From Vibrio sp. STUT-A11 (GTDB taxonomy: Bacteria > Pseudomonadota > Gammaproteobacteria > Enterobacterales > Vibrionaceae): DNA of 24,000 nucleotides. Below, in pieces: positions 10,683 through 24,000 of the stretch. The notes under the pieces are model-generated. The model saw only the letters and a program-made list of their open reading frames with translations. It did no database searches and was not told the DNA's origin. Location of the stretch: NCBI RefSeq assembly GCF_026000435.1, contig NZ_AP026764.1, positions 424,336 to 448,335 of the forward strand, written 5' to 3'. Each line of letters starts with the position of its first letter. Positions within the stretch are counted from its first letter, which is position 1. Both the position numbers and the translations under genes were made by a program.

Positions 10683-10720
10683 AAAAAGCAAAAAACCCGC
10701 ATTCAAACCGGAATGCGGGT
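10683..10720 (-). terminator. Strong Rho-independent terminator of the truncated OMP gene
   Basis: 10-bp stem: ACCCGCATTC (10695-10704) pairs with GAATGCGGGT (10711-10720). On the minus strand it is followed by TTTTTGCTTTTT (complement of 10683-10694). Confidence 0.7.
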
Positions 10721-10765
10721 GGCTTTAAGAGAGGTAAAGCAGTGGATTAGTAATGGAACTAAAAA

Positions 10766-10927
10766 TTAGAACGAGTATTTAGCTACAAACTTAAGGCCGT
10801 AACCGTCTTTCTTCTCGTTACCTTCCTGTTCTACAGAGCCAGTTTGAACGACAAAGTCTGTTTTGAATGAGTCAGTGACATCGTAGCCAAGACCTAGGTA
10901 TGCAGTTTGCGCTTCTACATTCGTACC
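10766..10927 (-). pseudogene. 3' fragment (53 codons + stop) of an outer-membrane beta-barrel/porin-like gene, cut by a transposon end
   Basis: Manual minus-strand translation: GTNVEAQTAYLGLGYDVTDSFKTDFVVQTGSVEQEGNEKKDGYGLKFVAKYSF*. It has alternating beta-strand character and the aromatic C-terminal F typical of OMPs. The frame stays open up to 10927 and stops being gene-like at the IR (10928). Its own terminator lies downstream. Confidence 0.5.
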
Positions 10928-10965
10928 GGGGTGTGAAGCCCAACGGTACGGTTTCGTACGTTAAG
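10928..10965 (+). repeat. Tn3-family 38-bp terminal inverted repeat (outer end at 10928)
   Basis: GGGGTGTGAAGCCCAACGGTACGGTTTCGTACGTTAAG is exactly 38 bp with the GGGG...ACGYTAAG architecture. From memory it resembles Tn3/Tn1000-type ends (GGGGTTTGAGGGCCAATGGAACGAAAACGTACGTT...). Confidence 0.7.
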
Positions 10966-10996
10966 CATTAAATCAAACAGTTAGAACGGTATGACG

Positions 10997-11034
10997 CTTA
11001 GGTAGACCCTACGATCACTGGTAAAAACCACCCC
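10997..11034 (-). repeat. Second 38-bp Tn3-family-like terminus in the opposite orientation
   Basis: The complement reads GGGGTGGTTTTTACCAGTGATCGTAGGGTCTACCTAAG. It is again exactly 38 bp and shares GGGTG at the outer end and TAAG at the inner end with 10928-10965, but the internal sequence is unrelated. Confidence 0.4.
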
Positions 11035-11121
11035 AAAATCAGGATATGACATAACCTATGTGTCACTACTGGCTGTGTCATGACTTAAATGACATGCTTG
11101 TTTTTTGTTAGCGTATGGAAT

Positions 11122-11133
11122 GGACTTCCTCCC
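11122..11133 (+). repeat. Left subterminal inverted repeat of the IS110-family element
   Basis: GGACTTCCTCCC is the exact reverse complement of 12437-12448. Confidence 0.7.
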
Positions 11134-11192
11134 TATCACTCAGCCGTTAGTTCTGAGATGATAAATTCACCATTTCATACGGAGATAACAAC

Positions 11193-12167
11193 ATGGCTGT
11201 GACTGTATTAGGTATCGACCTAGCAAAAAATGTGTTCGCATTGCATGGTGTTGACCACAAAGGCAATACCATTTTATGCAAACCCAAAGTAAGTCGGGCC
11301 AAGCTGTTAGAAACGGTAGCCAATATGCCACCGTGTCTGATTGGAATGGAAGCATGTAGCAGCGCTCATTTTTGGGCCCGATTATTCAAAAATGTCGGCC
11401 ACGAAGTTCGCCTCATCGCTCCTAAGTTTGTCTCTCCTTATCGACTGTCTGGCAAAGCAGGGAAAAATGATGCTGCTGATGCTCAATCTATCTGTGAAGC
11501 AGTTCAACGTCCTCATATGCGATTTGTTAGCATCAAGTCAGAAGAGCAGCAATCGATTCAATGTTTGCACCGAGCTAGGCAGGGCCTAAATGAAGAAAGG
11601 ACGGCAGTATGCAACCGCATTCGTGGTTTGCTCGCTGAGTTTGGTGTGATTGCTCCTTTATCACCGGAGCGATTGCGTAACGAGTTCGAGAGCATGAAGG
11701 TTCACCTTCCAACCTTAGCCGCAACTTGCATGGATGAATTATTTCTTCATATAGACAACATTGAGCGCAGGCTTTTAAAGTTCGACCGACTGATTAAAGA
11801 GACGGCAGAGCAAGATGAACGATGCCGACTATTGATGCAACTAAAGGGGGTTGGACCTATGACAGCCAGTGCTCTAGTATCAGCGATCTCTGACGGAAAA
11901 GAGTTTCGTAATGGCCGTCAATTGGCGGCCTGGTTGGGTTTAACGCCTTCTCAATACAGCAGCGGAGGGAAACCAAAATTAGGGCGAATTACTAAAGCTG
12001 GTGACAACTATATTCGTAGTCTGCTTGTGCAGGGGGCGCGTTCAATGATGGCTAGCGCCGGACGAAAAGACGATCCGCTCAGTAAGTGGGTCTGTGATGT
12101 CAAAGATCGCCGTGGTTACTGGCGAGCCGCTATTGCTTTAGCTGCAAAAAATGCACGACACTGTTGA
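11193..12167 (+). CDS. IS110-family transposase/recombinase (DEDD RuvC-like N-domain plus C-terminal serine Tnp domain)
   Basis: 324-aa ORF with GGAG 9 nt upstream. N-terminal motifs are LGIDLAKNVF, GMEACSSAHFW and KNDAADAQSI. C-terminal motifs are LKGVGPMTASALV and GLTPSQYSSGGKPKLGRITKAGDNYIRSLL. Confidence 0.9.
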   Translation: MAVTVLGIDLAKNVFALHGVDHKGNTILCKPKVSRAKLLETVANMPPCLIGMEACSSAHFWARLFKNVGHEVRLIAPKFVSPYRLSGKAGKNDAADAQSICEAVQRPHMRFVSIKSEEQQSIQCLHRARQGLNEERTAVCNRIRGLLAEFGVIAPLSPERLRNEFESMKVHLPTLAATCMDELFLHIDNIERRLLKFDRLIKETAEQDERCRLLMQLKGVGPMTASALVSAISDGKEFRNGRQLAAWLGLTPSQYSSGGKPKLGRITKAGDNYIRSLLVQGARSMMASAGRKDDPLSKWVCDVKDRRGYWRAAIALAAKNARHC

Positions 12168-12436
12168 GCAATACTTCACTATGGTGAATCATTCGAAAAT
12201 TGTTATTCAACCTAAATAAATCTCTTACCACCAATGATGACAACGCAAATATGATAAGGGTTAAGACCCCGCAAGAGGTGCCTGAGAAAACGTTAGGATG
12301 TTAAATATCCGATTAGCGTATGAGGTTCTTGCGAGCGTCTTTCATTTTGGTCCGGAACAGAATATTCCAGTATGACCGCTTATAGTACTGCATCTTAATC
12401 TTCATTGTGATTGCGTTCAGAGCACCCATTGACATC
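12168..12436 (+). ncRNA. Candidate element-encoded guide RNA (bridge/seekRNA-like) in the 3' non-coding tail
   Basis: No ORF. TTAGCGTATG (12313-12322) equals left-junction word 11108-11117. CTTATAGTAC (12379-12388) equals right-junction word 12448-12457. A small stem-loop is possible at 12350-12377. The transcript, its ends and its fold are not established. Confidence 0.4.
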
Positions 12437-12448
12437 GGGAGGAAGTCC
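12437..12448 (+). repeat. Right subterminal inverted repeat of the IS110-family element
   Basis: GGGAGGAAGTCC is the exact reverse complement of 11122-11133. A perfect outward-facing TTGACA lies just inside at 12429-12434. Confidence 0.7.
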
Positions 12449-12484
12449 TTATAGTACAATATTTTCCGAATCGTCGTGTGACCC

Positions 12485-12732
12485 CTATGAGCCTGCTGTC
12501 ACCCTTTGACGTGGTGATATGGATGACGGATGGCTGGCCGCTGTATGAATCCCGCCTGAAGGGAAAGCTGCACGTAATCAGCAAGCGATATACGCAGCGA
12601 ATTGAGCGGCATAACCTGAATCTGAGGCAGCACCTGGCACGGCTGGGACGGAAGTCGCTGTCGCTCTCAAAATCGGTGGAGCTGCATGACAAAGTCATCG
12701 GGCATTATCTGAACATAAAACACTATCAATAA
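12485..12732 (+). pseudogene. insB: insB' C-terminal fragment of IS1 transposase
   Basis: ORF 12478-12732 encodes ...[81 protein letters not shown], which is the C-terminus of IS1 InsB. insA and the N-terminal part of insB are missing. Confidence 0.9.
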
Positions 12733-12749
12733 GTTGGAGTCATTACCCT
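12485..12749 (+). mobile_element. IS1 remnant: terminal ~265 bp including the right inverted repeat
   Basis: The sequence matches the IS1 end from memory (TATGAGCCTGCTGTCACCCTTTGACGTGGTGATATGGATGACGG ... ATAAGTTGGAGTCATTACC). The terminal IR ends at 12749. The inner breakpoint is approximate (about 12460-12485). Confidence 0.9.
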
Positions 12750-12887
12750 TTTTTCAACTTCTGATGGATGCGAGTGATTGAACTCATACATTAATGTTTT
12801 CCCACGAAGTCTTTTTTCAGGTAAGCCTTCGCACATATCGGTAAATAGCTTGCCTGCTTTTATTTTTTCTGTCATCGACATGTTCAT
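12750..12887 (-). pseudogene. lacA: lacA' : first 46 codons of galactoside O-acetyltransferase, truncated by IS1
   Basis: Manual minus-strand translation from ATG (complement of 12885-12887): MNMSMTEKIKAGKLFTDMCEGLPEKRLRGKTLMYEFNHSHPSEVEK. E. coli LacA is MNMPMTERIRAGKLFTDMCEGLPEKRLRGKTLMYEFNHSHPSEVEKRESL.... The frame abuts the IS1 IR at 12749/12750. Confidence 0.85.
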
Positions 12888-12913
12888 TTTTAACATTCCG
12901 TCCTGATAAGTTG

Positions 12914-12943
12914 GTCGGATAAGGCGATCGCGCCGTATCCGAC
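12914..12943. repeat. Enterobacterial REP-like palindrome in the lacY-lacA spacer
   Basis: GTCGGATAAGGCGATCGCGCCGTATCCGAC, in which GTCGGATA pairs with TATCCGAC and GGCG with CGCC. It occupies the position of the REP in the E. coli lacY-lacA spacer. Confidence 0.6.
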
Positions 12944-12952
12944 ATTAATTTC

Positions 12953-14251
<1,299 letters not shown>

Positions 14252-14257
14252 TTATTA

Positions 14258-17369
<3,112 letters not shown>

Positions 17370-17375
17370 TCGCAT

Positions 17376-17405
17376 AACATACGAGCCGGACACATAGAGT
17401 GTAAA
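17376..17405 (-). promoter_or_regulatory. lac promoter (-10 TATGTT at 17376-17381, -35 TTTACA at 17400-17405)
   Basis: The minus strand reads TTTACACTCTATGTGTCCGGCTCGTATGTT. Both hexamers and the 18-nt spacer length are the same as in E. coli Plac. Confidence 0.85.
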
Positions 17406-17418
17406 GCCTGGGGTGCCT

Positions 17419-17440
17419 AATGAGTGAGCTGACTCACATT
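17419..17440. promoter_or_regulatory. CRP (CAP) binding site of the lac promoter
   Basis: The minus strand reads AATGTGAGTCAGCTCACTCATT. The TGTGA and TCACT half-sites are as in E. coli, with one change in the central spacer. Confidence 0.85.
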
Positions 17441-17461
17441 AATTGCGTTGCGCTCACTGCC
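17441..17461. promoter_or_regulatory. lac operator O3
   Basis: AATTGCGTTGCGCTCACTGCC is the complement of GGCAGTGAGCGCAACGCAATT and is identical to E. coli O3. It overlaps the lacI 3' end. Confidence 0.8.
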
Positions 17462-18536
17462 CGCTTTCAAGTCGGGAAACTTGTCGTGCCAGCTGCATTA
17501 AGGAATCTGCCAACGTGCGGGGAGAGGTGGTTTGCGTATTGGGCGGTAGGGTGGTTTTTCTTTTCACCAGTGAGACGGGCAACAGCTGATTGCTCTTCAC
17601 CGCCTGGCCCTGAGAGAGTTTCAGCAAGCGGTCCACGCTAGTTTTCCCCAGCAGGCGAAAATCCTGTTTGATGGTGGTTAACGGCGGGATATAACACGAG
17701 CTGTCTTCGGTATCGTCGTATCCCACTACCGAGATATCCGCACCAACGCGCAGCCCGGACTCGGTAATAGCGCGCATTGCGCCCAGCGCCATCTGATCGT
17801 TGGCAACCAGCATCGCAGTGGGAACGATGCCCTCATTCAGCATTTGCATAGTTTGTTGAAAACCGGACATGGCACTCCAGTCGCCTTCCCGTTCCGCTAT
17901 CGGATGAATTTGATTGCGTGTGAGATATTTATGCCAGTGCGCCAGACGCAGACGCGCCGAGACAGAACTTAATGGACCGGCTAACAACGCGATTTGCTGG
18001 TGACCCAATGCGATCAGATGCTCCACGCCCAGTCGCGTACCGTCTTCATGGGAAAAAATAATACTGTTGATGGGAGTCTGGTCAGAGACATCAAGAAATA
18101 GGGCCGGAACATTAGCGCAGGCAGCTTCCACAGCAATGGCATCCTCGTCATCCAGCGGATAGTTAATGATCAGACCACTGACGCGTTGCGCGAGAAGGTT
18201 ATGTACCGCCGCTTTACAGGCTTCGACGCTGCTTCGTTCTACCATCGACACCACCACGCTGGCACCCAGTTGATCGGCGCGAGATTTAATCGCCGCGACA
18301 ATTTGCGACGGCGCGTGCAGGGCCAGACTGGAGGTAGCAACGCCAATCAGCAACGACTGTTTGCCCGCCAGTTGTTGTGCCACGCGGTTGGGAATGTAGT
18401 TCAGCTGCGCCATCGCCGCTTCCACCTTTTCCCGCGTTTTCGCAGAGACGTGGCTGGCCTGGTTCACCACGCGGGAAACGGTCTGATAAGAGACACCGGC
18501 ATACTCTGCGACATCGTATAGCGTTACTGGTTTCAC
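17454..18536 (-). CDS. lacI: Lactose operon repressor LacI
   Basis: The ORF track gives 17454-18734. I trim it to the conserved GTG start (complement of 18534-18536), giving 360 aa. VKPVTLYDVAEYAGVSYQTVSRVVNQASHVSAKTREKVEAAMAQLNYIPNRVAQQLAGKQSLLIGVATSSLALHAPSQIV... ends ...SLMQLARQVSRLESGQ, colinear with E. coli LacI. Confidence 0.95.
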   Translation of the reverse strand: MKPVTLYDVAEYAGVSYQTVSRVVNQASHVSAKTREKVEAAMAQLNYIPNRVAQQLAGKQSLLIGVATSSLALHAPSQIVAAIKSRADQLGASVVVSMVERSSVEACKAAVHNLLAQRVSGLIINYPLDDEDAIAVEAACANVPALFLDVSDQTPINSIIFSHEDGTRLGVEHLIALGHQQIALLAGPLSSVSARLRLAHWHKYLTRNQIHPIAEREGDWSAMSGFQQTMQMLNEGIVPTAMLVANDQMALGAMRAITESGLRVGADISVVGYDDTEDSSCYIPPLTTIKQDFRLLGKTSVDRLLKLSQGQAVKSNQLLPVSLVKRKTTLPPNTQTTSPRTLADSLMQLARQVSRLESGQ

Positions 18537-18570
18537 ATTTACCACCCTGAATTGACTCTCTTCGGGTGCT

Positions 18571-18599
18571 ATCATGCCATACCACGAAATGTTTTGCCC
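18571..18599 (-). promoter_or_regulatory. lacI promoter homologue
   Basis: The minus strand reads GGGGCAAAACATTTCGTGGTATGGCATGATAGC; E. coli has GCGCAAAACCTTTCGCGGTATGGCATGATAGC. The -10 CATGAT is retained (complement of 18571-18576). Confidence 0.5.
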
Positions 18600-18856
18600 C
18601 ATTATTGTTTTCACAAGGATGGTTACTATCTTGGGTTTGGTGACATTATCCCTAATAAAACTAATCCCAATGGTATCGAAAGTGATTGAGTGGTTTGGAA
18701 CTACGCTGCAAAAGTTGTGGTGTACCGACCACATGACCTAGAGTTATGTCTAATCCTTTTTATTCCTTTCTATTCGGCTATAATCAAATTTACTTCACTG
18801 AGCGAATATGTGACTATTTGACAAAACCCTCAAGCTAATAACGTTAGGTACCTTTT

Positions 18857-19054
18857 GTGACTTCAGACCGTTGGTTATCTGTTGAAGAAATTGCCGAATA
18901 TCTTGGCGTAAGCAAAGATACCGTGTACTCATGGATCAGTAAAAAGGGAATGCCAGCGCATAGAATTGGTCGGCCTTGGAAGTTTAAAGCTGATGAGGTG
19001 GATCAGTGGGTTAGGTCTGGTGGTGCATCAGATAACAGCAAGGAAGAAAAATAA
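18857..19054 (+). CDS. Small excisionase-family helix-turn-helix DNA-binding protein (HTH_17-like)
   Basis: 65-aa ORF (GTG start per the track). WLSVEEIAEYLGVSKDTVYSWISKKGMPAHRIGRPWKFKADEVDQWV is the typical excisionase/MerR-like HTH_17 pattern. Its stop is 1 nt before the hsdR ATG. Confidence 0.7.
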   Translation: MTSDRWLSVEEIAEYLGVSKDTVYSWISKKGMPAHRIGRPWKFKADEVDQWVRSGGASDNSKEEK

Positions 19055-19055
19055 T

Positions 19056-21446
19056 ATGGCCTTAAACGAAGCGGATACTTGCCGAGTCTATGTGACGCCA
19101 AAACTTAAAGAGTCTGGTTGGGAAAGCAATCCTAGCGCAATAACTGAACAGTACACATTTACTGATGGTCGTGTTCAGTTTAAGGGCAGCAAAGTTCAGC
19201 GTGGCGAGCAAAAGCGAGCTGATTATTTACTTAAGTACACTCGTGATTTTCCTATTGCCGTTGTTGAGGCTAAACCTGAAAAAAGCCCTGTAGGTCAAGG
19301 GATGCAACAGGCAAAAGATTACGCAGAAATCTTAGGGTTAAAGTTTGCTTATTCAACCAATGGTCATGAGATCCTAGAGTTTGATTACACCACTGGTGAA
19401 GAGCAGTTATTGTCGCGCTTTCCAACCCCTGAAGAGTTATTCAGTCGGCTTTGTGGTGATGAAGGTTTAAAGGATGAAGATCTTGATACCTTACTGTCTC
19501 CTTACCACCATGTCTCGGGTTACTCACCGCGTTACTACCAGCAAATTGCCATAAACCGCGCAGTCCAGTCGGTACTTCAAGGTAAAAAGCGCTCATTAAT
19601 TACGATGGCAACGGGTACGGGTAAGACAGTTGTCGCTTTTCAAATTAGTTGGAAGCTGTGGAGTGCTCGCTGGAACCGCACGGGAGACTATAGAAAGCCT
19701 CGCATTCTATTTCTGGCAGATAGAAATGTGTTGGTAGATGATCCAAAGGATAAAACATTTACCCCGTTTGGTGATGCAAGGCATAAAATTGAAGGTGGTA
19801 AAGCCGTTAAAAGTCGTGAGATTTATTTTGCGATTTATCAATCCATTGCTAGTGATGAGCGTCGTCCAGGCTTGTATAAAGAGTTTCCGCAAGACTTTTT
19901 TGATCTAATCATCATCGATGAGTGTCATAGAGGCAGTGCCCGTGACAACAGTAACTGGCGCGAAATTCTAGAGTATTTTGAGCCAGCTTTCCAAATCGGT
20001 ATGACGGCGACTCCGCTGCGCGAAGATAACCGCGATACTTACCGTTATTTTGGCAACCCAATTTATACCTATAGTTTGCGCCAAGGTATTGATGACGGAT
20101 TTCTTGCTCCATACCGCGTACACCGAGTCATTTCGGAAGTTGATGCGGCAGGCTGGCGACCAAGCAAAGGCGATGTAGACCGCTTTGGACGAGAAATCCC
20201 TGATGGAGAATACCACACCAAGGACTTCGAGCGAGTTATTGCGTTAAAGGCACGAACAGATACGTTTGCTAAGCACCTGACAGACTTTATGAAGCGAACC
20301 GATCGCTTTGCAAAAACGATCGTGTTTTGTGTCGATCAAGAGCACGCTGACGAAATGCGTCGGGCGCTTAATAACTTGAATTCTGACCTTGCACGTAAGC
20401 ATCCTGATTACGTAGCACGAGTGACATCAGAAGAAGGGAAAATTGGCAAAGGGCACCTCAGTCGTTTTCAAGAGCTGGAAACCAGTACCCCAGTGATACT
20501 GACCACTTCACAGCTATTAACAACGGGGGTAGATGCACCAACCTGTAAAAATGTTGTGCTTGCGCGTGTTGTTAACTCAATGAGTGAGTTCAAGCAAATT
20601 GTTGGCCGTGGTACCCGCTTACGCGAAGATTACGGCAAGCTTTGGTTCAACATCATTGATTATACCGGTTCCGCTACACAAAACTTCGCTGACCCTGACT
20701 TTGACGGTTACCCAGAAATTGAAGATGAAGTGGTGATTGATGAAGATGGTGAAGAAGTGGTTGATGACCCTTTAACACCAGATAGTGAAGAGTTAGAGGT
20801 TGCTGAAGATACGGGTGAACACGAAGTGAACACTGAAGCTGAAGGCGCTGATGATGGAGAGGAGCACGAACCGAGAAAGTACTACGTAGACGGTGGGAGC
20901 GTTAAAATTACGTCTCATTTGGTTTATGAGCTAGACGAAGACGGTAAACAACTTCGTGTCATCCAATATACCGACTACACCGCAGAAAAGGTAAAAACCC
21001 TCTTTTCCTCATTGGACGAAATAAAAGATAGTTGGGCTAATCCGTTAAAGAGAGAACAGGTCATTCTCGAACTACAAGAACGAGGGATCCAGTTTGATGA
21101 TTTGGTTGCAGAGTCAGGCAAAACCGATGCAGATCCATTGGATTTACTTTGCCATATAGCATTTAACGTACCGCTGCGAACCAGAAAAGAGCGTGCTAAC
21201 TACTTGAAGAAAAACAAACCTGATTTTTTTGAACAGTACGGTCCAGAGGCCCGCGCTATATTAACGTCTTTATTGGACAAATACACCGACCACGGCCCTA
21301 AGCAATTCAGTATTCCTGATTCGCTACAGGTACCACCCATTTCTGAATATGGCAATGTGATGGAAATAGCCCGCCTTTTTGGCGGTGCGTTGCAAATGAA
21401 AACAGCCGTGGACCAATTACAAACGCTGCTCTATAGCCAGCAATAA
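19056..21446 (+). CDS. hsdR: Type I restriction enzyme R subunit HsdR (EcoEI/EcoAI-like architecture)
   Basis: ORF 18966-21446. The start is set at ATG 19056 (AAGGAAG at 19041-19047). The N-terminal nuclease region contains RADYLL...IAVVEAK. Helicase motifs are MATGTGKT, IIIDECHRGS, MTATPLRED, TTGVDAP and QIVGRGTRL. The C-terminal part resembles the EcoEI R C-terminal domain (DPLDLLCHIAF...). Confidence 0.9.
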   Translation: MALNEADTCRVYVTPKLKESGWESNPSAITEQYTFTDGRVQFKGSKVQRGEQKRADYLLKYTRDFPIAVVEAKPEKSPVGQGMQQAKDYAEILGLKFAYSTNGHEILEFDYTTGEEQLLSRFPTPEELFSRLCGDEGLKDEDLDTLLSPYHHVSGYSPRYYQQIAINRAVQSVLQGKKRSLITMATGTGKTVVAFQISWKLWSARWNRTGDYRKPRILFLADRNVLVDDPKDKTFTPFGDARHKIEGGKAVKSREIYFAIYQSIASDERRPGLYKEFPQDFFDLIIIDECHRGSARDNSNWREILEYFEPAFQIGMTATPLREDNRDTYRYFGNPIYTYSLRQGIDDGFLAPYRVHRVISEVDAAGWRPSKGDVDRFGREIPDGEYHTKDFERVIALKARTDTFAKHLTDFMKRTDRFAKTIVFCVDQEHADEMRRALNNLNSDLARKHPDYVARVTSEEGKIGKGHLSRFQELETSTPVILTTSQLLTTGVDAPTCKNVVLARVVNSMSEFKQIVGRGTRLREDYGKLWFNIIDYTGSATQNFADPDFDGYPEIEDEVVIDEDGEEVVDDPLTPDSEELEVAEDTGEHEVNTEAEGADDGEEHEPRKYYVDGGSVKITSHLVYELDEDGKQLRVIQYTDYTAEKVKTLFSSLDEIKDSWANPLKREQVILELQERGIQFDDLVAESGKTDADPLDLLCHIAFNVPLRTRKERANYLKKNKPDFFEQYGPEARAILTSLLDKYTDHGPKQFSIPDSLQVPPISEYGNVMEIARLFGGALQMKTAVDQLQTLLYSQQ

Positions 21447-21466
21447 CAGAAGTAACGATACGATTT

Positions 21467-23044
21467 ATGGCACGAACAAAGAAAGCAGATCAGCCGATGA
21501 CCACCGCCCAGCAACTAGGCGCGATTGTTAAATCATCTCGGCAAATCATGCGTAAAGATAAAGGCTTAAATGGCGATCTCGATCGCCTGCCAATGCTCAC
21601 TTGGATCATGTTTTTGAAGTTTCTCGACGACTTAGAACAAATGCGAGAAACCGAAGCCGTGCTAGAAGGAAAAAGCTTTCAGCCAGCCATCGAAGCGCCG
21701 TACCGCTGGCGAGACTGGGCAGCAATTGAAGGTGGTATCACCGGCGATGAGCTGATTGCCTTTATTAACAATGATGAAGCAATGCGACCTGATGGCACGC
21801 GTGGCATCGGTTTGTTTGCTTACTTGCGTAGCCTGCAAGGTGATAACGGTGGTGATCGTCGAGATGTGATTGCGACCGTGTTTAAAGGCATGCAAAACCG
21901 AATGATCAACGGATATTTGTTACGTGATGTTGTCGACAAAATAAACGGCATCCATTTCAACTCATCTGAAGAGATGCATACCTTAAGCCGCTTATACGAA
22001 ACCATGCTGCGTGAAATGCGTGATGCCGCTGGTGACTCCGGCGAATTTTATACTCCGCGTCCAGTGGTTCGCTTTATGGTTGAGGTGATGGATCCGCAGT
22101 TGGGTGAGTCTGTATTGGACCCAGCCTGTGGCACGGGTGGTTTTTTGGTTGAAGCGTTCGAACACCTAGAGCGCCAGTGTAAAACAGTCGAAGATCGCAA
22201 AGTATTGCAAGAAAGCAGTATCTTTGGCGGCGAAGCCAAATCTTTGCCTTACTTGTTGGTACAAATGAACCTGTTACTGCATGGTTTGGAGTACCCAAGA
22301 ATTGACCCTGAAAATAGCCTCCGTTTTCCACTACGAGAGATGGGTGACAAAGATCGTGTGGATGTGATCTTAACCAATCCACCTTTTGGTGGTGAGGAAG
22401 AAAAAGGCATTCTTGGTAACTTCCCAGAAGACATGCAAACCGCCGAAACCGCAATGCTGTTCCTTCAGTTGATCATGCGTAAACTCAAGCGTCCTGGTCA
22501 TGGTTCAGACAATGGCGGCCGTGCCGCGGTTGTCGTCCCAAATGGCACGTTATTCAGTGATGGTATCAGCGCACGCATTAAAGAAGATCTGTTAAAAAAC
22601 TTTAATCTGCATACCATTGTTCGTTTGCCGGAAGGGGTATTCGCGCCTTACACCGATATTGCAGGCAACTTACTCTTCTTCGATCGTTCTGGCCCAACAG
22701 ACGATATTTGGTATTACCAAATCACTGTTCCTGAAGGTCGTAAAAAATATACTAAGACTAAACCAATGGAAAGCCATGAGTTTGATGAATGCTGTAACTG
22801 GTGGAGTAATAGGATTGTTAATCAGAATGCATGGAAAGAAAGTGCCTCAGAGATTATTAAATACTCCGAAAGTGGACAACTGATTGACGTAAATTTAGAT
22901 AGAAAAAATCCTAATAGTCTCGAAGTGCTTGAACACGAAGAGCCTATGGATTTGATAGAGAAAATAACCACTAAAGAAGAGTCTCTTTTAGCGATCTTAA
23001 AACAGATTAAAGCTGAAATCCGTACTCAAGGTATCTCTAAATGA
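21467..23044 (+). CDS. hsdM: Type I R-M N6-adenine DNA methyltransferase HsdM
   Basis: 525 aa with an HsdM N-terminal region (LPMLTWIMFLKFLDD), AdoMet motif I VLDPACGTGGFLVEA and catalytic motif IV ILTNPPFGG. Confidence 0.9.
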   Translation: MARTKKADQPMTTAQQLGAIVKSSRQIMRKDKGLNGDLDRLPMLTWIMFLKFLDDLEQMRETEAVLEGKSFQPAIEAPYRWRDWAAIEGGITGDELIAFINNDEAMRPDGTRGIGLFAYLRSLQGDNGGDRRDVIATVFKGMQNRMINGYLLRDVVDKINGIHFNSSEEMHTLSRLYETMLREMRDAAGDSGEFYTPRPVVRFMVEVMDPQLGESVLDPACGTGGFLVEAFEHLERQCKTVEDRKVLQESSIFGGEAKSLPYLLVQMNLLLHGLEYPRIDPENSLRFPLREMGDKDRVDVILTNPPFGGEEEKGILGNFPEDMQTAETAMLFLQLIMRKLKRPGHGSDNGGRAAVVVPNGTLFSDGISARIKEDLLKNFNLHTIVRLPEGVFAPYTDIAGNLLFFDRSGPTDDIWYYQITVPEGRKKYTKTKPMESHEFDECCNWWSNRIVNQNAWKESASEIIKYSESGQLIDVNLDRKNPNSLEVLEHEEPMDLIEKITTKEESLLAILKQIKAEIRTQGISK

Positions 23045-24000
23045 AAGAGTATACTTTAAGGGATGTTCTTATCCGCCAAAAAGAGGCCATCACCGTTGAG
23101 GATGATGCTGAGTATAAGCGCATTACCATTAAAATGAATGGTAATGGCGTGCTCCTTAGAGATGAAGTCATTGGTGACGCTATAGGAACTAAGCGCCAGT
23201 TTCTGGTGAGTTCTGATCAGTTTGTGCTTTCAAAAATTGACGCAAGGAATGGTGCTTTCGGAATAGTGCCTAAAAGCTGTGATGGAGCAATTATTACAGG
23301 AAACTTTTGGGCATTTGACGTCAACTCCGAACTTGCAGATGTTAAATACCTCGATTTCATGTCTAAAACACCAGAGTTCAAAGACTTTTGTATCGTTGCA
23401 AGCGAAGGTACTACTAATCGAAAGTACCTTGACGAAAATAAGTTTCTTGATAAACGGATTTTGCTACCTGAGCTCGCAGAGCAGAAAAAAGTGGTTGCTA
23501 AGATCTTAAAGTTTAAGAATAAGATAGAGCTAGCGCGGAAAATCCGAAACGAGATTTTAAGTGATCTCTACGTGCTGTTAAACAGCACATTTCACAAATT
23601 AATTGAAGGCGCTGTCTACAAGCCGATGTCGAAAGTGGCACCTCTTGAGCGCCGTAAAGTTGAGATCGATGTGAACGCGGAGTACCCAGAGCTTGGTGTG
23701 CGTTGTTTTGGTAACGGTACTTTCCACAAGCCTATTCTTAACGGAATGGACGTTGGTACCAAAAAGCTGTACCAAATGGTTCCCGGTGACTTGGTGTTCA
23801 GTAATGTTTTTGCTTGGGAAGGTGCGATCGCGGTTGTTAAAAAAGAAGACGAAGGTCGTGTCGGTTCGCATCGTTTTATAACGTGTTTACCTAAATCAGG
23901 AGTGGTGACAGCCGATTTCCTTTGCTTTTATTTTCTAACGACTGAGGGGTTAGAGAAAATACAAGCAGCATCCCCTGGAGGTGCTGGAAGGAATAGAACT
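23041..24000 (+). CDS. hsdS: Type I R-M specificity subunit HsdS (3' end beyond the window)
   Basis: Absent from the ORF track because it is open at the window end. ATG 23041 overlaps the hsdM stop (ATGA). Manual translation: MKEYTLRDVLIRQKEAITVEDDAEYKRITIKMNGNGVLLRDE...LSKIDARNGAFGIVP...LPELAEQKKVVAKILKFKNKIELARKIRNEILSDLYVLLNSTFHKL (central conserved helix), then a second TRD ...VGSHRFITCLP...ASPGGAGRNRT. Confidence 0.85.
   Translation, partial: MKEYTLRDVLIRQKEAITVEDDAEYKRITIKMNGNGVLLRDEVIGDAIGTKRQFLVSSDQFVLSKIDARNGAFGIVPKSCDGAIITGNFWAFDVNSELADVKYLDFMSKTPEFKDFCIVASEGTTNRKYLDENKFLDKRILLPELAEQKKVVAKILKFKNKIELARKIRNEILSDLYVLLNSTFHKLIEGAVYKPMSKVAPLERRKVEIDVNAEYPELGVRCFGNGTFHKPILNGMDVGTKKLYQMVPGDLVFSNVFAWEGAIAVVKKEDEGRVGSHRFITCLPKSGVVTADFLCFYFLTTEGLEKIQAASPGGAGRNRT

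Follow-up and report, generated by a model that had tools for sequence, protein, structure and literature searches.

A porin gene on chromosome 2 of Vibrio sp. STUT-A11 stops abruptly at a 38-bp sequence that resembles the terminal repeats of Tn3-family transposons, and a second 38-mer of similar outline faces it 31 bp further on. To which element do these two sequences belong, and what became of the rest of the porin gene? The window in which the question arose, a stretch of 24,000 bp, corresponds to C2:424336-448335 of a two-contig genome of 5.25 Mb. Its first-pass annotation had proposed either the surviving end of a lac-carrying Tn3-family transposon or a 107-bp miniature unit with hybrid ends. 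Sequence comparisons extended to the rest of the genome, to plasmid records and to other genomes lead us to the following reading: the first 38-mer (IR1) is very probably the functional left end of a complete, helper-dependent composite transposon of 15,376 bp, the left arm of which is a TIME, with the second 38-mer ('IR2') lying in the interior of that arm. The features of the locus are listed below, with the evidence for each in brackets.

10766-10927, minus strand: 3' fragment of the porin gene, Porin_4 family, last 53 codons and stop (frame open to 10927)
10923-10927, no strand: GTACC, the left member of the 5-bp target duplication (its right member, C2:450639-450643, lies past the window edge)
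10928-10965, plus strand: IR1, left terminal inverted repeat of both the 217-bp miniature element and the 15,376-bp composite (sequence, mate, match to the repeat panel)
10928-11115, plus strand: left arm, the left 188 bp of the miniature element (217-bp copies elsewhere)
10966-11010, plus strand: subterminal sequence common to IR1-type ends, including the inner part of IR2, CTTAGGTAGAC (alignments with L017, L015, L018 and L028)
10997-11034, minus strand: 'IR2', a GGGG...CTAAG look-alike and not a terminus (only inside copies of the 217-bp element)
11015-11094, plus strand: putative res-like region (alignment with tnpR-upstream sequence, two dyads)
11107-11115, minus strand: inner 9 bp of the right repeat of the miniature element, GTTAGCGTA, cut off by the IS (intact in six L records)
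11116-12456, plus strand: IS1111-type IS of 1341 bp, coordinates approximate, ends ambiguous by up to 3 bp with GTA repeated (identical second copy)
11193-12167, plus strand: DEDD transposase of the IS (Pfam PF01548, PF02371)
12457-12485, minus strand: outer 29 bp of another repeat of the Tn3 family, belonging to the IR3 type, whose native form is GGGGTCACACGACGATTCGGAAAATATTGTACGCTAAG (L019/L020, V. albus)
12486-12750, plus strand: remnant of IS1 truncated by the IR3-type end and retaining its right end and the 3' part of insB (Pfam DDE_Tnp_IS1)
12751-18603, minus strand: lacA'-lacY-lacZ-lacI block (99.6% identity to Klebsiella plasmid lac regions)
18604-24000, continuing to about 24466 in window-equivalent coordinates, plus strand: HTH-hsdR-hsdM-hsdS type I restriction-modification block (Pfam)

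A 15,376-bp element splits the porin gene

IR1 reads GGGGTGTGAAGCCCAACGGTACGGTTTCGTACGTTAAG over its 38 bp and directly abuts the minus-strand porin frame (ending ...GLKFVAKYSF and stop), which is open as far as 10927. A genome-wide search for IR1-related termini returned IR4 at C2:450601-450638 on the minus strand (window-equivalent 26266-26303), IR3 within the window at 12448-12485, likewise on the minus strand, and two perfect repeats separated by 9.9 kb (C2:1467367 and C2:1477269). The flank of IR4 opens with GTACC, the same pentamer as at 10923-10927, giving the layout GTACC-IR1 ... IR4-GTACC, and the 5' part of the porin gene begins at C2:450644, just past this far repeat. When the two flanks were joined minus one GTACC, a porin frame of 333 codons was obtained, compared with 285 codons when both copies were kept. 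An intact orthologue (L022; congener G017) shows 93% amino-acid identity and is colinear across the insertion site; the two porin halves map to adjoining positions of it at 92% and 89% nucleotide identity, and Pfam recognised Porin_4 both in the 5' part and in the orthologue. Aligned to it, the native sequence ends at 10927 and picks up again after the far repeat. The mate repeat, the GTACC pair and the restored frame together indicate that one insertion of 15,376 bp, extending from IR1 to IR4 on chromosome 2, split the porin gene and that nothing was deleted.

The exact cut of the frame by IR1 had been seen correctly in the first-pass annotation, which left the 5' part of the gene as either displaced or deleted: that part is still present, moved away by 15,376 bp. 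Two further statements have to be reversed. GTACC had been denied a part in a target duplication, but its partner follows the mate repeat, which ends at C2:450638 (window-equivalent 26303), and what had been called a surviving end belongs to a transposon that is complete with mate repeat and duplication. The mate was missed because it lies 2.3 kb beyond the edge of the window, where the porin 5' part and the second GTACC were found as well. As to the nature of IR1, it matches the perfect repeats of the 9.9-kb transposon, which encodes a PF01526 TnpA, at 30 of 38 positions (8 mismatches), and is identical to element ends in V. albus (L028) and V. rumoiensis (L017). With a family-like repeat, an inverted mate and a 5-bp duplication, IR1 is a genuine Tn3-family end. 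The GTACC duplication in itself proves only the joint insertion of the two ends; cargo could be exchanged later.

The left arm is part of a 217-bp miniature element

From IR1 to 11115 the sequence is the left 188 bp of a discrete, Tn3-derived element of 217 bp. Plasmids of V. alginolyticus, V. parahaemolyticus, Citrobacter, Klebsiella, E. coli, Enterobacter and Pseudomonas carry this 188-bp stretch at 98.4-99.5% identity, and V. cholerae pVCG1.1 and others carry it at about 88%. The element was present in 13 plasmid records and in two to three species genomes (three were matched when the genome collection was scanned with IR1), with different flanks in every record. The full unit with an intact right repeat was found in L009, L010, L011, L016, L027 and L029. 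The reverse complement of this repeat reads GGGGTGTGACGCCCAATGGAACGAAAACGTACGCTAAC and shares 29 of 38 positions with IR1 and 35 of 38 with the repeat of the 9.9-kb element; in some variants of the miniature element the right repeat is of the GGGCTTCA type. The pVCG1.1 copy is flanked by GTTAA on both sides; most other 217-bp copies have no duplication. Photobacterium is also among the hosts of miniature-element copies that are 98-99.5% identical.

TIMEs, as described by Szuplewska et al. 2014, have 38-bp repeats with 29-30 identities, generate 5-bp duplications and are mobilised in trans (PMC4133298). A length between 50 and 500 bp, the lack of coding capacity, the Tn3-type repeats and the occurrence of copies in unrelated contexts, one of them with a 5-bp duplication, indicate that the 217-bp element fits this family. 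The likeness to known members (PMC4133298; Gomi & Yano 2026, PMC13367494) extends to the absence of an ORF, to 38-bp repeats at 29/38 and to a distribution over plasmids of several genera, as well as to the single copy with a duplication, to an interior similar to res and to the formation of one end of a larger helper-dependent transposon. The layout, best read as left repeat, putative res and right repeat, is that of IS101 and TIME244, but the sequence differs from IS101, MITESen1, TIME244, IMU and TIME1-4. It is mainly an element of Vibrionaceae that has spilled over into IncQ plasmids with KPC and qnrS2, and no published name for it was found in the papers searched. Unlike in TIMEs, the right repeat is here split by an IS and its outer part replaced. 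The suggestion that a miniature derivative reduced to its repeats was involved is borne out by this element.

Two candidates were examined and set aside. The MITE of pAC3 is an element different from the 217-bp unit, and the 1,375-bp mobile insertion cassette with qnrS2 is not bounded by IR1, no family repeat following qnrS2 in pUR19829-KPC21.

The second 38-mer lies across subterminal and res-like sequence

On the complement, 10997-11034 reads GGGGTGGTTTTTACCAGTGATCGTAGGGTCTACCTAAG, again 38 bp, 31 bp away from IR1. IR1 and IR2 share 15 of 38 positions, ten of which lie in GGGGTG and TAAG. What had been described here from the letters of the window was confirmed, namely both 38-mers and their spacing, the pentamers GTACC and AAAAT flanking the 107-bp stretch between their outer edges, and the TGTGTCA/ATGACAT words and IS110-family gene that follow. 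Searching with IR2 alone returned the same 13 records, always within the 217-bp unit and never at an element end. Against a six-member panel of repeats, IR2 scored 10-17/38, compared with 23/38 against its homologue in the res region. Its hallmarks are gone from diverged copies, which read GGTG...TTAAC in pVCG1.1 and TTTT...TAAA in G003, and GGGG/TAAG is also absent from the homologous stretch of the V. albus element and of the 9.9-kb transposon. The likeness to bona fide Tn3-family ends claimed for the two 38-mers held for IR1 and failed for IR2.

The two parts of IR2 could be traced separately. Its inner part, CTTAGGTA.AC, is subterminal sequence that IR1-type ends of larger elements in V. 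rumoiensis, S. baltica, V. parahaemolyticus and V. albus have in common. Its outer part and the next 73 bp align to the 110 bp that immediately precede tnpR in the 9.9-kb transposon, in which CACG stands in place of the 'CCCC'. This local alignment scored 41, compared with maxima of 33 over 2000 shuffles and 29 over 2000 random genome pieces, and the interior also aligned to tnpR-upstream sequence in L017 and L028. Two 19-bp dyads, TGACA-N9-TGTCA (11047-11065) and TGTCA-N9-TGACA (11076-11094), account for the repeated TGTGTCA/ATGACAT words and are probable resolvase-binding sites. An Rfam scan of 10700-12800 with E up to 1 returned nothing. At this genome's rate, a GGGG-N30-TAAG string is expected about 0.001-0.003 times in the 141-bp interior, which makes the look-alike appear unusual by chance, yet it is not conserved. 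Because TAAG comes from the conserved subterminal motif, only CCCC is fortuitous. From these alignments IR2 is an apparent seam of subterminal and res-region sequence, with the GGGG...CTAAG outline confined to this sub-lineage, and not a Tn3-family terminus as first thought. A comparable seam exists in the V. albus element, in which IR1 and 55 bp are joined to a res-tnpR-cargo segment of the 9.9-kb type; as homology breaks right after CTTAGGTA.AC, an exchange at res is suggested.

An IS1111-type insertion sequence sits in the repeats

The IS that cuts the miniature element had been taken to begin at 11108; 11107-11115 is in fact the inner part of the right repeat and the IS spans about 11116-12456. 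A second copy, 100% identical and in direct orientation, lies at C2:449261-450610, directly inside IR4. The IS has 12-bp subterminal repeats (GGACTTCCTCCC) and non-coding regions of 77 bp on the 5' side and 290 bp on the 3' side. Its DEDD transposase, subterminal repeats, long 3' non-coding region and fixed target are those of the IS1111 group, in which subterminal inverted repeats of 11-13 bp and a long non-coding region downstream of tnp are found (PMC11187229). Comparison with the uninterrupted repeat of the 9.9-kb transposon places the insertion point behind ...CTTAGCGTA, so that 9 bp of the repeat remain on the inner side, and tnp reads outward. Position and orientation are the same in four repeat contexts, including the IR3-type ends of two V. 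alginolyticus plasmids (L019, L020), in agreement with the earlier idea that an IS1111-group element targeting Tn3-type repeats was at work. The left terminal extension measures 6 bp and the right one 5-8 bp, according to the assignment of the repeated GTA; the usual values in the group are 7 (or 6) bp and 3 bp, respectively (PMC11187229).

Copies of the left and right junctions are present in the 3' region of the IS, as the 10-mers TTAGCGTATG (12313) and CTTATAGTAC (12379); at least one such junction 10-mer occurred in only 99 of 5000 shuffles. The IS probably recognises the inner ...TTAGCGTAC of Tn3-type repeats via a guide RNA produced from its 3' tail. Its right end, CTTATAGTAC, replaces CTTAGCGTAC and restores 8 of the 10 displaced bases. 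The loaded repeats still conform to the Tn3 type at 36 of 38 positions, which is why IR3 and IR4 surfaced in the pattern scan. In its DEDD transposase, 12-bp subterminal repeats and long 3' non-coding region, and in its insertion in one orientation at one fixed site of Tn3-family repeats with tnp toward the outer end, the IS resembles IS4321 and IS5075 of the IS1111 family, which target 38-bp Tn21-family repeats (Partridge & Hall 2003, as cited in PMC11187229). It is distinguished from them by a nucleotide identity of at most about 65% and by the cut at 9 bp from the inner end, compared with 16 bp for IS5075 in Tn21-type repeats.

The left-arm copy is bordered on its left side by the inner repeat of the miniature element and on its right side by the outer part of IR3, not by the element's own sequence. 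IR3 is a bona fide end: it is uninterrupted in V. albus, and transposons of the cadR/czc and resolvase/RelE types on V. alginolyticus plasmids terminate in it. The hybrid right end is most simply explained by recombination between an IS copy in the miniature element and another in an IR3-type transposon inside the lac-adjoining IS1.

The composite joins modules from Klebsiella and Vibrio plasmids

Identity to Klebsiella IncF plasmids (99.6%) starts precisely at 12486, and the lac block matches the Klebsiella plasmid lacIZY-lacA'-IS1 arrangement surveyed in PMC4549013. It lies between IR1 and its mate, which upholds the assignment of IR1 to a lac-carrying Tn3-family transposon. The hsd block is 94-98% identical to V. 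campbellii plasmids, and microhomologies, GTTTTGC.CCATT and TGTCCAAA, mark its two seams. The right arm, outside the window, reproduces the left end of the 9.9-kb transposon over 496 bp at 100% identity; it holds a fragment of the resolvase gene, with the second IS copy within its repeat. No tnpA was found between the ends of the composite, which makes it helper-dependent, and the window contains neither tnpA nor tnpR, as had been noted.

Neither the composite nor the junction between IR3 and IS1 was found in other records (72,556 plasmids were searched for the junction), so that movement of the composite as a unit rests on one insertion. The junction search matched only neighbouring, distinct junctions in Klebsiella and Leclercia plasmids, where Tn1721-type and Tn21-type ends adjoin the same IS1 within 3 bp and represent separate events. 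The TATGA common to the V. albus flank and to the IS1 junction is a coincidence, the sequences diverging after 6 bp.

A resident transposon could provide transposase and resolvase

The 9.9-kb transposon, 1 Mb away, has perfect repeats and a GTATA duplication, and encodes a PF01526 TnpA of 1001 aa, a resolvase, ParE, a metal ATPase and a MerR regulator. The sole PF01526 match in the genome, at C2:1474231-1477236, lies within it, and several Vibrio plasmids carry its transposition module at more than 99% identity. An autonomous transposon with both IR1 and tnpA was not found: the IR1 elements of V. albus and V. rumoiensis have no tnpA, and the V. albus element was dropped as an autonomous parent for this reason. 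Because no element combines IR1 with tnpA, we infer, rather than observe, that the resident transposase recognises IR1.

Events may have taken the following order. An IR3-type transposon end would have entered the IS1 beside a Klebsiella-type lac region, and recombination between IS copies would have fused the arms. The 9.9-kb transposon or a plasmid-borne twin would most likely have supplied transposase and resolvase in trans, acting on IR1 and IR4, with the miniature element providing one end and a res site in cis. The composite would thus have been inserted into the chromosome 2 porin gene, generating the GTACC duplication, and the cointegrate would have been resolved at the res-like site. 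As a wider and rather doubtful generalisation, the IS might be an end-swapping device: loaded repeats would remain usable by the transposase, and recombination between IS copies would fuse unrelated arms into working transposons. If true, end-swapping would have brought together a miniature element, a Klebsiella lac region captured via the end of another transposon, and a restriction system from a Vibrio plasmid.

Alternative explanations

The composite might instead have been assembled in place, in two steps, a course that we consider unlikely. A small element consisting of IR1, res and a 9.9-kb-type repeat, perhaps already with the IS, would have arrived first, and lac-hsd would have been brought in on a circular molecule by homologous recombination between IS copies. 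Such a course would account for the 100% identity and direct orientation of the two IS copies and for their position at the exact limits of the cargo plus the foreign outer part of IR3; it also agrees with the microhomology of the cargo seams, which marks them as recombinational, with the absence of the composite from other records and with the existence of miniature variants having GGGCTTCA-type right repeats. The incoming molecule would nevertheless still need the hybrid IS context, with a 9.9-kb end on one side and IR3 on the other, so that nothing is gained in economy. Moreover, the 467 bp inside the far repeat are identical (100%) to the left end of the 9.9-kb transposon and are not miniature-element sequence.

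Much less credible is the reading in which IR1 and IR2 bound a decayed or hybrid miniature of 107 bp, or in which IR2 is the relic end of a nested second transposon. It draws on the geometry of the two strings, both GGGG-N30-TAAG, exactly 38 bp long and facing each other, an arrangement with a chance of about 0.001. No 107-bp copy exists anywhere, however, and no duplication surrounds the 107 bp; IR2 is seen only within the 217-bp unit, its interior matches no repeat of the panel and its GGGG/TAAG is lost in diverged copies, its inner half being subterminal sequence and its outer half res-like sequence with CACG in the parent. That IR1 might be a dead orphan, left by a lac transposon that lost its other end while the porin 5' part was deleted, had been a natural conclusion from a window in which the mate repeat, tnpA, tnpR and a second GTACC adjoining a repeat are all missing. 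It is refuted by the mate, the second GTACC and the complete porin 5' part 2.3 kb beyond the window, and we give it practically no weight. The reading of IR1 as the left end of a complete composite is the one retained below.

Relation to known elements and significance

All parts of this structure are of known kinds: TIMEs and TIME composites, lac regions in class II transposons as in Tn951, IS1111 elements that hunt for repeats, and the lacIZY-lacA'-IS1 arrangement of Klebsiella. The composite resembles a TIME-COMP in its cargo without transposase, its Tn3-type ends, its 5-bp duplication and its presumable mobilisation in trans. A TIME-COMP is bounded by two TIMEs, whereas the right arm here is a 496-bp fragment of the end of an autonomous transposon, and the cargo is a catabolic operon with a restriction-modification system instead of resistance genes. 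Tn951, a lactose transposon of the Yersinia enterocolitica plasmid pGC1 (Cornelis 1978), contains Tn2501 (Michiels & Cornelis 1984), both as cited in PMC4549013 and PMC3316555. As far as these citing papers describe Tn951, the likeness is one of architecture only, comprising an enterobacterial lacI-Z-Y, IS1 nearby, a class II transposon of about 16 kb and dependence on a Tn3-family module; Tn951 carries Tn2501 as a component transposon, whereas the composite described here has no tnpA and Vibrio-type repeat ends. New are the specific 217-bp element bearing a res-like site, the composite with mixed arms, the combination of lac with a Vibrio restriction-modification system as cargo, and the landing in a chromosomal porin gene of Vibrio.

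An apparent orphan repeat thus becomes a fully delimited mobile element, and the locus offers a worked case of how the edge of a window can conceal a mate repeat and a target duplication; miniature elements of this kind are also easily missed in annotation. The presence of three repeat types and one repeat-hunting IS provides a convenient natural system in which to study the function of IS-loaded ends. The apparently unnamed 217-bp element ties the Vibrionaceae mobilome to IncQ KPC/qnrS2 plasmids of Enterobacteriaceae and Pseudomonas. Finally, the composite shows a route by which a lac region like those of Klebsiella plasmids entered a Vibrio chromosome along with a type I restriction-modification system, at the expense of a porin gene.

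Joints within the composite cargo

Each of the two seams of the hsd restriction-modification block, carried inside the composite that IR1 and IR4 bound, is a microhomology joint:

Window 18591-18603: lac-side seam, GTTTTGC[C/G]CCATT, shared with that end of the Klebsiella-type block which lies upstream of lacI
~24467-24474 (C2:448802 region): right-side seam, TGTCCAAA, common with the copy of the 9.9-kb transposon end

The presence of such joints on both sides argues that the cargo was assembled through illegitimate recombination and not by transposition. The ~75-bp stretch directly preceding the transposon-end copy (C2:448740-448818, window-equivalent 24405-24483) has 79-83% matches at two further sites of this contig (961334 and 1652747) and is a short dispersed repeat. 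Two native lacZ-like genes, at ~1.397 Mb of contig C1 and ~0.969 Mb of C2, are present in the same genome; their nucleotide identity to the imported lacZ (window 14910-17074) is 67-75%.

At the other end of the lac block, the IS1 adjoining lacA' is met, in unrelated records (the window, L031 and L032) and at positions no more than 3 bp apart, by three distinct Tn3-family ends:

Window 12482-12490: junction with the IR3-type end
Klebsiella pneumoniae NZ_CP132671: Tn1721-type end
Leclercia pLEC-000f: end of a Tn21-type mer transposon

This clustering could reflect an insertion hot spot within IS1 or, alternatively, end-mediated deletions.

Repeats loaded with the IS1111-type element are still intact at 36 of their 38 positions, because the right end of the element, CTTATAGTAC, restores eight of the ten bases that it displaced, CTTAGCGTAC (window 12448-12457; C2:450601-450610). 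Unlike this element, IS5075 in Tn21-type repeats brings no such restoration.

The miniature element on plasmids, and two larger elements

The 217-bp Tn3-derived miniature element is also found, 98.9% identical, on the IncQ plasmids pKPC-LB887 and pUR19829-KPC21, where it lies immediately downstream of blaKPC-2 in one and immediately upstream of qnrS2 in the other, and is annotated in neither record. The two larger elements are:

C2:1467367-1477269: autonomous 9.9-kb Tn3-family transposon, perfect 38-bp repeats, GTATA duplication
NZ_QFWT01000007, 644-7053: Vibrio albus region with an uninterrupted end of the IR3 type and, 141 bp further in, an element of 6,231 bp

Besides TnpA and TnpR, the 9.9-kb transposon encodes ParDE, a metal ATPase of the P type and a regulator of the MerR type, and it also has DsbB-like genes; a 93-aa resolvase-gene fragment lies within its left end. 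In the V. albus element, IR1 is followed by 55 bp, res and tnpR; after a metal-ATPase cargo come a fragment of tnpR and a repeat of the 9.9-kb type. The element contains no tnpA and is flanked by no target duplication. Its homology with the miniature element breaks at the putative res, which suggests an exchange of arms by resolvase.
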